This document shows positions 2,962 through 63,791 of a DNA stretch of 64,000 nt, in pieces. The notes under the pieces were generated by a model, which made no database searches, had not been told where the DNA came from, and saw only the letters and a program-made list of their open reading frames with translations. The translations under genes were made by a program, and so were the position numbers. Source of the DNA: an uncultured Bacilli bacterium (lineage in GTDB: Bacteria > Bacillota_I > Bacilli_A > RF39 > UBA660); contig CALVSA010000002.1 in the NCBI GenBank assembly GCA_944358825.1, positions 17,707-81,706 of the forward strand, given 5' to 3'. Position 1 is the first letter of the stretch; every line of letters begins with the position of its first letter.

Positions 2962-3160
2962 AAAAAAGATGGTATAAAAGGACGAGAAAACCCGCGGTAC
3001 CACCTTTTTTTATAACTATGTTATACACTCAATTCTTAACGCGATTAAACGATTAAAACTAAAGGGTGAATTCATATTTAATAACTAGCTCTACTCTCAT
3101 CATCTAGAACTTTCTGTATAGTTATTTTACAAATACTACTACTTCCTTATTATTGTTTTA
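2962..3160 (-). promoter_or_regulatory. T-box riboswitch leader (Phe specifier) controlling the small ORF-pheS-pheT unit
   Basis: The minus-strand transcript carries the conserved T-box core AAAGGUGGUACCGCGGG (plus coordinates 2992..3004). A terminator follows in which GGUGGUA pairs with UACCAUC and is followed by a U-run (2964..2976). Upstream there is a GAAUUCA specifier-like triplet, UUC for Phe. Confidence 0.6.
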
Positions 3161-3703
3161 TTAAATAGTCATTAATTCTTTTTCTTTTTCTTTTAATTTT
3201 TCATCAACTATTTTGTTAAAATCATTAATTAATTCTTGAACTTTTTCATTAGCTCTTTTTTCTTCATCTTCACTTAACTCTAAATTATCAATTGCCTTAT
3301 TTGCATCTTGTCTGATATTACGAAGAGCAATTCTTGCTTCTTCAGCGATTTGTTTTACTTGTTTTACTAGTTCTTTTCTCCTATCTTCTGTTAAAGCTGG
3401 AATAACTATAAATATTGATTCACCATTATTATTTGGTGTTAATCCTAAATCAGCTTCAAAAATTGCCTTTTCTATATCTTTTAAAATACTTTTATCAAAT
3501 GGCTTTATTGATAATTGACGAGCTTCTGGAATAGAAATATTTGCTAGTTGTTTGATTGGAGTGTCAACTCCATAATAACTAACTGTTATGTCATTTAATA
3601 TATTAGGATTTGCTCTACCCGCTCTTACGTTAGTAAATTTATGTTCTAATGAATTAATTGATAATTCCATTTTTTCTTTGGCATTTTCTAATACACTTTC
3701 CAT
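3161..3703 (-). CDS. frr: Ribosome recycling factor
   Basis: 180 aa with the typical RRF length and sequence pattern (VRAGRANPNIL.., DLGLTP). Confidence 0.9.
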   Translation of the reverse strand: MESVLENAKEKMELSINSLEHKFTNVRAGRANPNILNDITVSYYGVDTPIKQLANISIPEARQLSIKPFDKSILKDIEKAIFEADLGLTPNNNGESIFIVIPALTEDRRKELVKQVKQIAEEARIALRNIRQDANKAIDNLELSEDEEKRANEKVQELINDFNKIVDEKLKEKEKELMTI

Positions 3704-32001: not shown

Positions 32002-32051
32002 ATGGCGTCCCCGATTGGAATTGAACCAACGACCTATCGCTTATGAGGCGA
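32002..32051. repeat. attL-type core repeat (tRNA 3' half)
   Basis: Matches 37842..37891 at 49 of 50 positions. Confidence 0.8.
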
Positions 32052-32079
32052 AGGCATTTTCCTATTATGCTACAGGGAC
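32003..32079 (-). tRNA. tRNA-like gene with anticodon CAT (Met/Ile2-type), probably the element-derived attP-side hybrid copy
   Basis: 77 nt that fold as a cloverleaf with a perfect 7-bp acceptor stem and a D stem GCAT/ATGC. The anticodon stem has a U-U mismatch at its top. It has 3' CCA. Its 3' half is identical to that of tRNA-Arg at 37843. Confidence 0.5.
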
Positions 32080-37841: not shown

Positions 37842-37891
37842 ATGGCGTCCCCGATTGGAATTGAACCAACGACCTATCGCTTAGGAGGCGA
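37842..37891. repeat. attR-type core repeat (tRNA-Arg 3' half)
   Basis: Matches 32002..32051. Confidence 0.8.
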
Positions 37892-37919
37892 TTGCTCTAT
37901 CCTACTGAGCTACGAGGAC
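37843..37919 (-). tRNA. tRNA-Arg (anticodon CCT)
   Basis: 77-nt cloverleaf with acceptor GUCCUCG/CGGGGAC, D arm GCUC-AGUAGGAUA-GAGC, anticodon arm AUCGC-CUCCUAA-GCGAU, T arm GUUGG-UUCAAUU-CCAAU and an encoded CCA. Confidence 0.8.
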
Positions 37920-49162: not shown

Positions 49163-50017
49163 TTATGCTCTTGGATGAGCATTTTCATATACTTTTTTTA
49201 CTTGTTCATTGGTAACATGTGTATAAATACTTGTTGTATCTAGTGATTCATGTCCTAATAATTTTTTAACACTTACTAAATCTGCACCATTATTTAACAT
49301 ATCTGTTGCAAAGGTATGTCTTAACATATGTGGTGTTATTTTAGTTTTAGCACCTGATATTAATTTTATTTTATTTAATATATTTCTTATCGAGGTAGTA
49401 CTTATTTTACCACCATTTTTATTTAGTATTAAGTAGTTAGAATTCTTTTTATTTATTTTATCTCTTTCTTTTAGATAATTATTAAGATTATTTAGACAAT
49501 TAGTAGAAAAGATAACTATTCTTTCTTTGGATCCTTTACCAAATATTTTTATTTCTCGATTATATAAATTAATATCATTTATTTTAATATTAACTAATTC
49601 ACTAACACGAATTCCTGTTACAAATAATAATTCTAATATTAATTTATCACGAATATTTTTAGTTTTAGAAAACATTAACTCTAAATCTTCATCTTTTATA
49701 TATTTTGGTAGTATTTTATCTTTTTTAGGATTTTTATGATTATTAAAATAATTATAAGCAATTATATCATTATTTACTAAATAATTATAAAAACTCCGAA
49801 GAGAGCTTAATTTTCTAGAAATACTATTTTTATTATATTTTTGATTATATAAATATTCTAGATAATAAACTACATCTTCATCTTTTATTTTCAAATAATC
49901 TACTTTATCTAGATAATTTATAAAATCAATAATATCTTTGTAATAATTATTAATAGTATATACAGAATATCTTTTATTACTCTTTATATAAGTAATATAA
50001 TCATCTAAATACTTCAT
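49163..50017 (-). CDS. Tyrosine site-specific recombinase, XerC/XerD family
   Basis: 284 aa. R (GIRVSEL), HMLRHTFAT and GHESLDTTSIYTH catalytic motifs. Confidence 0.75.
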   Translation of the reverse strand: MKYLDDYITYIKSNKRYSVYTINNYYKDIIDFINYLDKVDYLKIKDEDVVYYLEYLYNQKYNKNSISRKLSSLRSFYNYLVNNDIIAYNYFNNHKNPKKDKILPKYIKDEDLELMFSKTKNIRDKLILELLFVTGIRVSELVNIKINDINLYNREIKIFGKGSKERIVIFSTNCLNNLNNYLKERDKINKKNSNYLILNKNGGKISTTSIRNILNKIKLISGAKTKITPHMLRHTFATDMLNNGADLVSVKKLLGHESLDTTSIYTHVTNEQVKKVYENAHPRA

Positions 50018-58705: not shown

Positions 58706-58923
58706 ATAACTCTTTCCCCCTTTTTTAAATTGCTGTTATTATAGCACTTTATATCTTACTTGTCAAGTATTTTATAATACATTTGTTTTTATCAAAATTA
58801 AAAAAATTTAATTTATTTATTTTTTTGTATAATTTATTTATTTATAGAACATAATATTAACGGAAAACAAAATAGTTTTCCATTAAAAGAAGCACTTGGG
58901 TATTTACTCAAGTGCTTTTTATT

Positions 58924-59796
58924 TTATCCATTTATTTGTTTTGCAACTTCATCAGCAAAGTTTTCTTCTTTTTTCTCCATTCCTTCACCAACTTCATAAC
59001 GTACAAAACTATTTATTTTACTATTTTTAGATTCAACATATTTACCAACTTTAGTTTTATTTTCTTTTACAAAGCCTTGATCAACTAAACATACTTCTTC
59101 ATAAAATTTATTTAGGCGTCCATTTACTATCATTGGTATTTTATTAGTATCTAAACCTTCATTTTCAGCTTGTTCTGTTAAAATAGTTTTTTCTTTTTCA
59201 ATTACTTCACTTGGAACTTCTTCTCTAGTTAAATAACTAGGACGCATTGCAGCAATTTGCATGGCAATATCTTTAGCTAGTTCTACGTCATTTCCATCCA
59301 TTACACATAATGTTACTATTTTACCACCCATATGTGAATATGTTCCAAATACTTGATTATCTTCTTTTGTTACTTTTGTAAATCTTCTAAATGATAATTT
59401 TTCACCAATTGTAGATATTTTTTCAACAATTAACTCTTCTAATGTTTTATCATCAACATTTAATTTTAGTGCATCTTCAACATTAGTAACATTACTTTCT
59501 AATAAAATATCAGCAATTTTATCTACTAAAGATTTAAACTCTTCATTTTTAGCAACAAAATCAGTTTCAGAATTTACTTCTAATATAACTGCATTATTAC
59601 CGTTTACTTTTGTAAGTCCAAGTCCTTCTGCTGCGATTCTTGAAGCTTTTTTAGCGGCTTTAGAGATACCTTTTTCTCTTAACCATGTAATTGCTTCTTC
59701 CATATTACCATTAGTTTCTTCTAATGCTTTTTTACAATCTAACATGCCGGCGCCAGTTGTTTCTCTTAATTCTTTAACCATGCTTGCACTTATCAT
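58924..59796 (-). CDS. tsf: Elongation factor Ts
   Basis: 290 aa. N-terminal UBA-like region VKELRETTGAGMLDCKKALEE. Confidence 0.9.
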   Translation of the reverse strand: MISASMVKELRETTGAGMLDCKKALEETNGNMEEAITWLREKGISKAAKKASRIAAEGLGLTKVNGNNAVILEVNSETDFVAKNEEFKSLVDKIADILLESNVTNVEDALKLNVDDKTLEELIVEKISTIGEKLSFRRFTKVTKEDNQVFGTYSHMGGKIVTLCVMDGNDVELAKDIAMQIAAMRPSYLTREEVPSEVIEKEKTILTEQAENEGLDTNKIPMIVNGRLNKFYEEVCLVDQGFVKENKTKVGKYVESKNSKINSFVRYEVGEGMEKKEENFADEVAKQING

Positions 59797-59810: not shown

Positions 59811-60788
59811 CTATTTTAAGCTTGCTATTAATTCATCTTTTTTCATTTTTGAATAGCCTTTTATTTCTTTTTTCTTGGCTAATTCACGTAGTTCAGATAC
59901 TGTTAATATTTCTAAATCTATTTTAGTTTCAACTTCTTTATTAACTGTTTCTTCTTTTTTTGGCTCTTCTTTTGTTTCTTTTACTTCTTTATTTTCTTTT
60001 TTCTCTTCTTTTTTAGTTTCTTTTTTTACTTCTTTGGTCTTTTTGCTTTCGCTTTTATCGAATTTAGTTTTCTTATTTTCATCTTCTGTTACATAATCTA
60101 CTAAAGTACCACCATTAGCTTCTACTATTGCATTTGTTAATGCTCCAAGAACAACTTTAATACTTCTTACTGCATCATCGTTTCCTGGAATTACATAATC
60201 TACCATATCTGGATCACAATTTGTATCAATTATTCCAAATACTGGTATTTTTAATTTTCTAGCCTCACGAATAGCGTTGTATTCTTTAGTTGAATCAACA
60301 ATAATAATTGCTTGTGGTAATCTTTGCATATCGCGAATACCATGTAGGTTACGATCTAATTTTTCGTATTCTTTTTTAAGACCAATTACTTCTTTTTTAG
60401 GTAATTTTTCAAATGTACCATCTTTTTCCATCTTTTCGATTTCTTCTAATCTGTTAACTCTTTTTCTAATTGTTCTAAAATTAGTTAGTGTTCCTCCTAA
60501 CCATCTTTCAGTAACATAATACATTCCTGCTCTTTCAGCTTCTTCTTTGCAAACTTCACTAGCTTGTTTTTTAGTTCCAACGTATAGAACTTTTCCACCT
60601 TCTTGAGCAATTTTGTGTAAAGCATTATATGCTTCTTCTATTTTTTCTACTGTTTTAGATAAATCGATAATATAAATATCGTCTCTTGAGTTGTAGATAT
60701 ACTCTTTCATTTTTGGATTCCATCTTTTGGTTTGATGACCAAAATGAACTCCAGCTTCTAATAAGTAGCTCATAGATACTACTGCCAT
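59811..60788 (-). CDS. rpsB: 30S ribosomal protein S2 with a ~100-aa Lys/Glu-rich C-terminal extension ending in a Rho_N/SAP-like helix-extended-helix motif
   Basis: [27 protein letters not shown] is a canonical S2 N-terminus, with an AAGGAGG RBS before ATG at 60788. The tail is [54 protein letters not shown]. Confidence 0.9.
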
Positions 60789-61056
60789 TTTATTTCCTCC
60801 TTTTGTTTTTCCTCCAAATACTTCTTCTTTAAACATCACCTAATAGGCACTAGATATTTAAATCAGTATTTGTGTGTATTTTTGAAAAGCCATAAATATA
60901 TTATCATGTTTTATGGCTTTTTACAACTATATTTTGTTATTTTTTTATGTTTTTTTAAAGCGATGCTTAATGATTTATCTAAATACTATTATATATTATG
61001 TTTATTTATATATATGATGTATGTATATGATAAATTATTATATACATAATAGCAAC

Positions 61057-62172
61057 TTAACAACTAAATCCGCCATTTCCAATATCTTCTGCTCCACCTC
61101 CACCTTTTGCATAAACAACACCACCATTTATTCTAATTATACCTGTAACAGAAGCCTCTTTATAACCTCCAATTCCTGCACCACCACCTGCTCCACTTCC
61201 ATTATCATAACCTTCCATATTAGTTGCTCCTATTCCTACTCCTCTACCTTCTGAATTTAATACCCCTGTTCCATCTATTATTAATTTTGATGAATAAGAA
61301 ACATATAAACCAACTGATGGTGAAGCACTTGAAGAAGAATTTGTTTTTAAACTATTTTCTCCTTCAATTTGCAAATTAACTACTGAATCATTAAATAATC
61401 TAAATGTGCCTCCATTAAATCTATCTTCTGTTATACTAACATTATTTAATGTTATATTAGATTCTCCTCCATTAATAGTTACTCCTCTATTATCTGTTGC
61501 AGTTCCTGTTATAACAATAGGTGTTTTATTTGATATTTCTTGTTGAGAATCTAGTCCTCCACCACTTACTAATAATGTATTATCACCATTTCCTTTATCT
61601 ATAGTAATTGCTCCTTTTGATATACCTAAATTCATTATTTCTGGAGCCTCACTACCTACTCCATCACTTACTATTTTTGCACTAAAAATTTTTCCTATTT
61701 CACTATTTGGTGTATTTATATCTAACCATATTCTTATACTTATTACCTTACTTTCTCCTGGATTTAGAGTTAAATCACTGGCAATAATTGAATCTTTTAA
61801 ATTAGATAAAGTAACTAGCTCTTTATTATCTACCATTATTTTTATATAATCAGAATTTATTTGATTAGAAGTAGTTGTATTATTTAACAACAAATCAAAT
61901 GTATAAGATAAATTACCCTTATTAGTTATCTTAAACTTATATGGATTACTTTTCTTACCTTCTTCATCTGTTATAGGCAAACTATTTGCAAGATTTAGAG
62001 TTTCCCCTAATCCTTCTTCATCGTTTTCTATTACTATATCTAGTATTCCAGCAGTATAACTTTCCGTATTTTCTAGTTTATCTTTTCTAAAAAATAAAGC
62101 ATAAGTAGTAGTAGATAATATAACTAAAACCACTATTATTGATATAACTAATATAATTACTTTTCTATTCAT
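61057..62172 (-). CDS. Secreted protein with a TasA/camelysin-like N-terminal domain and a Gly-rich (beta-helix-like repeat) C-terminal domain; paralog of 50119..51462
   Basis: The N-terminal ~180 aa are near-identical to the paralog. The C-terminus is GGGLDSQQ...GSGAGGGAGIGGYKEASVTG...GGGGAEDIGNGG. A GAAGGAG RBS precedes ATG at 62172. The track start at 62193 is further upstream. Confidence 0.5.
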   Translation of the reverse strand: MNRKVIILVISIIVVLVILSTTTYALFFRKDKLENTESYTAGILDIVIENDEEGLGETLNLANSLPITDEEGKKSNPYKFKITNKGNLSYTFDLLLNNTTTSNQINSDYIKIMVDNKELVTLSNLKDSIIASDLTLNPGESKVISIRIWLDINTPNSEIGKIFSAKIVSDGVGSEAPEIMNLGISKGAITIDKGNGDNTLLVSGGGLDSQQEISNKTPIVITGTATDNRGVTINGGESNITLNNVSITEDRFNGGTFRLFNDSVVNLQIEGENSLKTNSSSSASPSVGLYVSYSSKLIIDGTGVLNSEGRGVGIGATNMEGYDNGSGAGGGAGIGGYKEASVTGIIRINGGVVYAKGGGGAEDIGNGGFSC

Positions 62173-62312
62173 ATTACTCCTTCTTTCACACAATAAAAAA
62201 ACAGAAAAAGATTCTAAAAATTAGAATTATTTTCTGTTTTTATTATTTTATTATTAAATATTTTATTATTTTTTAGTAATAAATTTGACCCCCATATTTA
62301 CTTGTAGTTAAC
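61648..62312. repeat. Duplicated ~665-bp segment, copy B
   Basis: Paralogous to 50938..51601. Confidence 0.85.
62196..62241 (-). terminator. Terminator hairpin, duplicate of 51486..51530, downstream of the aminopeptidase gene
   Basis: AAAAAAACAGAAAAAGATTCTAAAAATTAGAATTATTTTCTGTTTTT. Confidence 0.5.
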
Positions 62313-63575: not shown

Positions 63576-63791
63576 ATGTACCCAAATTACCAAAATGTTT
63601 ATTCTAATAATATGAGAAGACCCCCAATGCGTCCTGGGCGACCAATTGGCCCAAATAATAGGTTTTTTGGCGGAGGATTTTTAGGACCATTTATCCTTGG
63701 TGGAATAACTGGCGGTTTGCTTGCACCATCTTTTTACCCTCGTCCTATGCCTTATGGTCCACCTCCACCACCATATCCTATATATTATTAA
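63576..63791 (+). CDS. Small Pro/Gly/Tyr-rich protein (71 aa)
   Basis: Strong GGAGG RBS. Low-complexity composition: PPMRPGRP..GGGFLGPFILGG..PPPPPYPIYY. A perfect terminator follows. Confidence 0.5.
   Translation: MYPNYQNVYSNNMRRPPMRPGRPIGPNNRFFGGGFLGPFILGGITGGLLAPSFYPRPMPYGPPPPPYPIYY

Follow-up and report, generated by a model that had tools for sequence, protein, structure and literature searches.

The ribosomal protein S2 (uS2) encoded by rpsB in an uncultured Bacilli bacterium ends, behind a complete S2 core and a charged linker, in a small domain that its sequence identifies as a genuine member of the helix-extended-helix (HeH)/SAP/Rho_N superfamily, with Rho_N as its closest relative. 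The gene lies on the minus strand of the window, by which we mean the whole stretch of 64,000 nucleotides analysed here. The earlier note had treated the tail as a peculiarity of S2; comparisons with other genomes show instead that the module of linker and HeH is also carried on the C-termini of L20, L21 and L27, i.e. on proteins of both ribosomal subunits, and any explanation of it must therefore hold for both. We put at roughly one half the probability that the HeH is a generic arm on a flexible tether which binds RNA and so concentrates it locally at the surface of the ribosome. The features of the rpsB region are as follows.

59811..60788, minus strand: rpsB coding sequence (325 codons and a TAG stop), encoding the S2 core, linker and HeH tail
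60120..60764, minus strand: Ribosomal_S2 core, residues 9–223 (Pfam PF00318, E 2.8e-99)
59919..60086, minus strand: K/E-rich linker, residues 235–290, predicted to be disordered (AlphaFold2 pLDDT about 30)
59814..59918, minus strand: C-terminal helix-extended-helix domain of Rho_N/SAP type, residues 291–325 (35 amino acids; Pfam and AlphaFold2)
60796..60800, minus strand: Shine–Dalgarno sequence GGAGG, 7 nt 5' of the rpsB ATG, read off the sequence
58924..59796, minus strand: tsf (EF-Ts), a 290-amino-acid ORF and second gene of the operon, 14 nt 3' of the rpsB stop
58887..58920, no strand assigned: 15-bp hairpin directly after tsf, a terminator-like site

The rpsB start is an ATG at 60788–60786 with AAGGAGGAAATAAA directly 5' of it, and the TAG stop is at 59811–59813 (minus strand). 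A longer ORF with a GTG start reaches 60839 (60789–60839, 17 extra codons), and this start is the one adopted in public gene calls (P0001, 341 amino acids). The GTG was rejected as an over-extension: the N-termini of orthologues begin MAVVSMSY, from which we take the ATG at 60788 to be the real start, and the strong Shine–Dalgarno sequence favours the same codon. The 290-amino-acid ORF was assigned as EF-Ts because the orthologous gene 3' of rpsB in loci L081–L084 is annotated EF_TS; the rpsB–tsf operon context, taken as a mark of uS2 membership, is thus present. The hairpin at 58887..58920 is likely to be the terminator of this operon (two terminator-like sites were found versus 0.4 expected), and a promoter scan 5' of rpsB gave nothing above chance.

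The S2 core is full length, with residues 9–223 covering positions 1–215 of the 216 in the PF00318 profile, and it matches S. aureus uS2 with an E-value of 1.8e-100 in a comparison with PDB sequences. The linker that follows has 56 amino acids and a charged fraction of 0.68; its net charge per residue of +0.04 makes it almost neutral. The earlier note had read this region by eye as a K/E-rich linker leading into a C-terminal HeH of Rho_N/SAP type, and both strings that it quoted are present exactly. An HMM search agreed, with Rho_N (PF07498) matching residues 291–324 at 36.2 bits (E 5.9e-9) when the whole protein was scanned and at 41.5 bits when the last 42 amino acids were scanned alone, against a Pfam gathering score of 24.9 bits. 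The protein ends one residue past this match. Sub-threshold matches of the tail to SAP (18.7 bits) and HeH (12.9 bits) were also obtained.

The predicted structure is consistent with this assignment. The AlphaFold2 model of the full-length protein, built with a 52-sequence alignment, comprises the S2 core; a stretch at residues 236–288 with a pLDDT of about 30, indicating that the charged linker is also disordered; and a tail with a helix at 297–306, an extended loop and a helix at 317–324 (pLDDT about 75). Modelled alone, 44 residues of the tail reached a pLDDT of 82, with helices at positions 16–25 and 36–43 in a helix-extended-helix topology, so that the fold proposed earlier is borne out both by the profile and by the model. 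Foldseek comparison of the tail model with the PDB returned the E. coli Rho N-terminus and the SAP domain of FAN1 as best matches, and nearly all of the leading hits were either Rho N-termini or FAN1. Rho N-termini superposed with an rmsd of 1.4–1.7 Å over 35 residues (TMq 0.70) and DNA-bound FAN1 SAP, the closest superposition, with 0.8 Å over 32 residues; all E-values were ≥1 and hence not significant, which we attribute to the very small size of the domain. A profile built from 34 tails was compared with PDB sequences, matching the Ku70 SAP domain at 1.5e-9 (the top match) and M. tuberculosis Rho at 4.7e-9, as well as the Rho N-termini in 8hsj and 3l0o and the SAP domain of Tho1. The tail motif GYS.MKK.ELI is closest to Rho N-termini.

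Conservation of the tail was assessed at two levels. PF00318 and PF07498 are annotated together in all 120 of the best 90%-identity protein clusters; and when one genome was scanned for each species, more than 538 related loci came up, among the best 80 of which the HeH tail is present and in frame in 78. Of the two loci lacking it, L075 is truncated where its contig ends and L053 has a different tail. Mean pairwise identity across 73 orthologues was 77% for the core and 60% for the HeH but only 28% for the linker, a difference which marks the HeH as being under purifying selection, with the linker keeping its composition only. Linker length varies from 27 to 121 amino acids across orthologues at a maintained charged fraction of about 0.6 and net charge of about 0; drift of sequence and length at constant composition is in keeping with a flexible tether rather than with an element that docks. 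In 56 of the 57 S2 proteins compared the HeH itself forms the very C-terminus, with 0–2 residues after it; in the remaining one six residues follow. Low-complexity extensions of the S2 C-terminus are very common and variable, and one reading is that the tail is a further non-functional example or the product of a frameshift or mis-assembly. The in-frame conservation in 78 of 80 species and in every one of the nearest 120 clusters, and the contrast between tail and linker identity, rule out an artefact and leave this reading with a negligible probability; the survey of related rpsB genes proposed earlier thus came down in favour of the extension.

The carrier genomes are, by their names, metagenome-assembled genomes (MAGs) of uncultured gut Bacilli/'Tenericutes' (for example Acholeplasma sp. 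CAG:878, Clostridium sp. CAG:1193, Ca. Coprosoma, Ca. Fimihabitans), lineages which we take to be RF39-type. Among S2 proteins overall the fusion is rare, as only eight of the best 150 S2 representatives at 50% identity have it; and no S2 chain in the PDB carries an HeH tail, including those of B. subtilis, S. aureus and M. pneumoniae, the last of which could be aligned only to residue 248. The view that such an extension is unusual on S2 therefore holds.

Most of the other S2 proteins among these 150 representatives have unrelated acidic or basic low-complexity tails. Two end differently: P0160 (412 amino acids) in an HhH motif like that of the RNA polymerase alpha-CTD (35.3 bits, above threshold); P0255 (339 amino acids) in a motif resembling a C2H2 zinc finger, below threshold. 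In the S2 of locus L053 (L053:3001-4161, 387 amino acids) the HeH is replaced by a K/A/V-rich tail like histone H1, with a weak HC2 match below threshold. Judging from these sequences, the C-terminus of S2 appears prone to acquire appendages that bind nucleic acid.

Among the 80 genome loci, 16 have rplT directly 5' of rpsB, in the order infC-rpmI-rplT-rpsB-tsf, and in all 16 (L034, L047, L054, L059, L061, L064, L077 and nine more) the L20 protein bears its own charged linker and HeH tail. Tailed L20 proteins match Ribosomal_L20 together with Rho_N at 38–46 bits; one tail subtype, 'VTGLKK', scores best as SAP, at 32.3 bits and above the SAP threshold. The fusion is present in 120 of the 120 best L20 clusters, and a circular metagenomic contig of 1.81 Mb encodes both a tailed S2 and a tailed L20. 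In half of the 16 genomes (eight) the L20 tail nearest to the S2 tail comes from the same genome, and in L061 the tails of L20 (gene L061:2623-3186) and S2 are 96% identical at the DNA level. These same-genome matches suggest recent duplication or gene conversion between the neighbouring genes, and functional interchangeability of the two tails. In one L20 entry, P0271 (293 amino acids), a complete tailed L20 is preceded by a tandem duplicate of about 90 residues from the start of the L20 domain; this is probably an artefact of assembly or gene calling.

Further carriers were sought by scanning metagenome contigs with the degenerate DNA motif GY[ST]xMKKxEL, which returned 80 loci; the carrier counts are biased, as the motif was derived from S2 and L20 tails. 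With a tail score of at least 25 bits there were 42 S2, 16 L20, eight L21 and one L27 protein; two Rho proteins (L137 and L121, the latter counted as Rho from its sequence) with the domain N-terminal and an ATPase domain present; and seven other proteins. Pfam gave 39.3 bits for Rho_N on L21, 38.1 bits on L27 and 39.7 bits on a divergent S2 whose source looks Bacteroidota-like. Two carriers in the scan were non-ribosomal proteins with an HeH of this type: a highly acidic one in which Rho_N and SAP come after a DNA-ligase-like domain at the N-terminus (L161:817-1848), and a DUF4912 protein whose N-terminal Rho_N precedes a K/A-rich stretch (L138:3597-4619).

The fusion of L21 with Rho_N is found in the best 120 L21 clusters without exception (120/120), among which are those of named Flavobacteriaceae in culture (Aquimarina, Muricauda/Flagellimonas, Winogradskyella, Arenibacter algicola and Lentiprolixibacter), with some carrier contigs of 4–6 Mb; it is common in the cultured members of the first four genera. 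In the rplU-rpmA operon of eight Flavobacteriaceae-like contigs (L102, L096, L148, L118, L126, L150, L089 and L116) the tail is on L21 and L27 is untailed, the L27 ORF of L118 leaving the end of the locus; on one contig the tail is on L27 (L135:10828-11328) and L21 is untailed. The cassette thus sits in either the one or the other of these neighbouring genes. The F. johnsoniae bL21 chain (PDB 7JIL) ends inside a low-complexity extension and has no HeH; and among the PDB chains searched, no deposited ribosome chain with the linker and HeH cassette was found. Within the 64-kb window S2 is the only carrier.

What the tail might do is best considered from the position of its anchor. uS2 sits on the 30S subunit's back side, at the hinge between head and body; it docks bS1 there and is close to the chamber of the Shine–Dalgarno (SD) helix (PMC10931766). 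Domains of the HeH/SAP/Rho_N class are small and bind nucleic acid. The HeH would be a small, weakly specific binder of nucleic acid, most likely of RNA, held by the disordered linker on a tether of perhaps a few nanometres at the ribosome surface. On S2 it could sweep the 30S subunit's back side near the bS1 dock and the SD helix, raising the local concentration of mRNA or other RNA and so serving as a minimal, built-in RNA-catching arm. Consistent with this is the overall arrangement, a conserved HeH on a variable tether at the solvent-exposed C-terminus of ribosomal proteins of both subunits; and the nucleic-acid-binding type of tail that other S2 lineages have at the same position also suggests such a role. 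As the anchor can be swapped, between L21 and L27 and, judging from their near-identical tails, between S2 and L20, the ligand is probably generic, with no fixed rRNA site; the same facts argue against two different specific rRNA docking sites. Against an RNA-binding arm, the net charge of the HeH is only about +1.5, the linker is neutral and an OB-fold is missing, and SAP/HeH domains may also mediate protein contacts.

An experimental precedent for an RNA-binding arm is plant chloroplast RHON1: gel shifts show that its isolated C-terminal Rho-N domain of 40 amino acids binds single-stranded RNA, 16S and 23S fragments among them (PMC3458557). As in the tailed S2, the Rho-N domain of RHON1 is at the extreme C-terminus after a highly charged stretch, but this stretch is acidic, and RHON1 is not a ribosomal protein and works with RNase E. 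A functional analogy may also be drawn with bS1, which is likewise a flexible, solvent-facing RNA-binding arm anchored at uS2 (PMC10931766); it differs in being a separate protein with several OB-fold S1 domains, for which there is no Pfam match in the window S2.

SAP domains that bind DNA (FAN1, Ku70) are among the closest structural matches, and DNA has therefore to be regarded as a serious alternative ligand. The HeH would then bind AT-rich double-stranded DNA and hold ribosomes or their subunits near the chromosome and RNA polymerase, allowing early capture of nascent mRNA. The Ku70 SAP domain as top PDB match of the tail profile, the close superposition on DNA-bound FAN1, the L20 tail subtype that scores best as SAP and the low G+C content of the window are all in keeping with such a tether, as are the alternative S2 tails (alpha-CTD-like HhH and H1-like K/A-rich), which are of a type typical of DNA binders, and the report that uS2 lies within the contact site of RNA polymerase on the ribosome (PMC5620080). 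However, the tail motif is nearest to Rho N-termini, and RHON1, the sole isolated Rho-N domain tested experimentally, binds single-stranded RNA (PMC3458557); on balance we regard a DNA tether as unlikely, if worth keeping in view. Protein ligands were considered as well. As a docking handle the HeH would recruit RNA polymerase, a helicase, an RNase or a hibernation factor, or mediate contacts between ribosomes, and uS2 does form part of the interface of the S. aureus 100S dimer and also overlaps the reported RNA polymerase contact site (PMC5620080), while RHON1 associates with RNase E (PMC3458557). Yet Rho-N is itself the RNA-binding part of RHON1 (PMC3458557), and with four differently placed ribosomal proteins carrying the module in two phyla, a suitable partner would be needed in all of them; we think this quite improbable.

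Autoregulation merits separate consideration, as both S2 and L20 carry the tail in this lineage. bL20 is an autogenous repressor. The same is established for uS2 in E. coli (PMC10931766). The HeH could bind nascent rRNA during assembly, or help S2 and L20 to repress their own mRNAs, and so offset factors lost from a reduced genome; the binding of rRNA fragments by the Rho-N domain of RHON1 (PMC3458557) and the make-up of the tailed S2 clade, uncultured gut Bacilli/'Tenericutes' MAGs, one of them represented by a circular contig of 1.8 Mb, would accord with this. Several observations weigh against it. The same tail is borne by L21 and L27, which are not known to be repressors; no ribosomal-protein leader RNA of known type was detected near rpsB or rplT at the gathering score; the near-identity of S2 and L20 tails opposes two different specific RNA targets; and a reduced genome is not required for the tail, since the Flavobacteriaceae carriers include contigs of 4–6 Mb. 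A role in assembly or autoregulation is therefore, in our estimation, rather improbable. The suggestion made in the earlier note, that the tail might bring Rho-like functions to the mRNA entry site, fares worse. Rho's N-terminal helical subdomain (PF07498) is of the same family and fold as the tail, with the shared motif GYS.MKK.ELI and an rmsd of about 1.5 Å, but this similarity is confined to the first 35–40 residues of Rho. The tail is C-terminal and has neither of the adjoining Rho domains: no Rho_RNA_bind OB-fold was matched by Pfam in the window S2 even at E-values up to 10, nor any RecA-type ATPase domain, and without these the tailed S2 cannot function as Rho. In Rho it is the neighbouring OB-fold, not the N-terminal helices, that provides the principal contacts with RNA. 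In addition, the module scores equally as a generic SAP/HeH, it occurs on 50S proteins too, and uS2 is placed on the 30S subunit's back side, near bS1 and the SD helix and away from the mRNA entry (PMC10931766). Neither a Rho-like termination activity nor recruitment of Rho itself by the tail is at all probable.

A flexibly tethered RNA-binding arm thus remains our preferred reading. A broader and more tentative proposal, which we hold to be possible but doubtful, is that the cassette is a recurrent and so far undescribed class of ribosome-borne 'tentacle', which reached uS2, bL20, bL21 and bL27, across two or more phyla, by separate fusion events or by transfer between adjacent genes, and which links ribosomes to nucleic acid outside the decoding channel, be it nascent mRNA or the AT-rich chromosome. 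If so, it would represent a protein-encoded means of mRNA recruitment or transcription–translation proximity distinct from bS1 and NusG.

The SAP/HeH proteins to which the tail is related (Ku70, FAN1 and Tho1; PF02037, PF12949) share its helix-extended-helix superfamily, and in Ku70 the SAP domain is likewise C-terminal behind a flexible linker; these are, however, eukaryotic proteins of DNA repair or mRNA export, whereas the carrier here belongs to a bacterial ribosome. Across bacteria, ribosomal proteins commonly bear C-terminal extensions, mostly disordered and of largely unknown function; lineage-specific ones are present on 11 of 52 ribosomal proteins in M. pneumoniae (PMC9534751). The A/K/E/P-rich extension of F. 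johnsoniae bL21 (7JIL) is of this disordered kind; the extension described here differs in having a conserved folded domain after the disordered stretch, and in the recurrence of the cassette on four ribosomal proteins. Sequence databases already contain the S2, L20 and L21 fusions with Rho_N as automatically assigned Pfam architectures, and among open-access papers we found none describing a fusion of S2, L20, L21 or L27, the recurrence on four proteins or the movement from gene to gene. This suggests that the cassette is a ribosomal protein extension ending in a known fold, whose recurrence and movement are largely undescribed.

The significance of the cassette lies in the fact that ribosomal protein extensions are widespread with largely unknown functions, and here the end of one is a recognisable, conserved and folded domain with a plausible biochemical activity. 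As the same cassette is found on four ribosomal proteins from the two subunits, and as its carriers include both abundant gut Bacilli and marine Flavobacteriaceae in culture, it turns a vague phenomenon into testable questions, namely what the ligand of the domain is and what its removal does. Should the tail tether mRNA or DNA, it would constitute a new structural route for recruiting messages or for keeping ribosomes near transcription, and would bear on how gene expression is organised in uncultured gut lineages with small genomes; should it have no measurable effect, it would be a modest case of domain shuffling.

The window has a G+C content of 25% and a gene neighbourhood typical of Firmicutes, with hrcA-grpE-dnaK-dnaJ, rsmE, a sortase and VanZ; neither bS1 nor Rho is among the 20 annotated ORFs between 37.9 and 63.5 kb. 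The gene 5' of rpsB (61057-62193, minus strand) encodes a protein of 378 amino acids that has a membrane anchor at its N-terminus and a C-terminal region rich in Gly; the protein's sole family match is a weak one to WxLIP_PGBD, below threshold. At 63576-63791 (plus strand) there is a 71-amino-acid ORF in which Pro, Gly and Tyr are extremely abundant and the middle is hydrophobic and rich in Gly (MYPNYQNVYSNNMRRPPMRPGRP...PPPPPYPIYY). A T-box leader was detected at 2975-3162 (minus strand, 97.8 bits), and tRNA genes for Met (CAT) and Arg (CCT) at 32003-32079 and 37843-37919 respectively, both on the minus strand. A tyrosine recombinase with Phage_integrase and SAM-like N-terminal domains is encoded at 49163-50017 (minus strand), flanked on one side by a gene for thymidine kinase and on the other by an ORF without annotation that resembles a surface protein; the recombinase could be of the XerC/D type or part of a mobile element.
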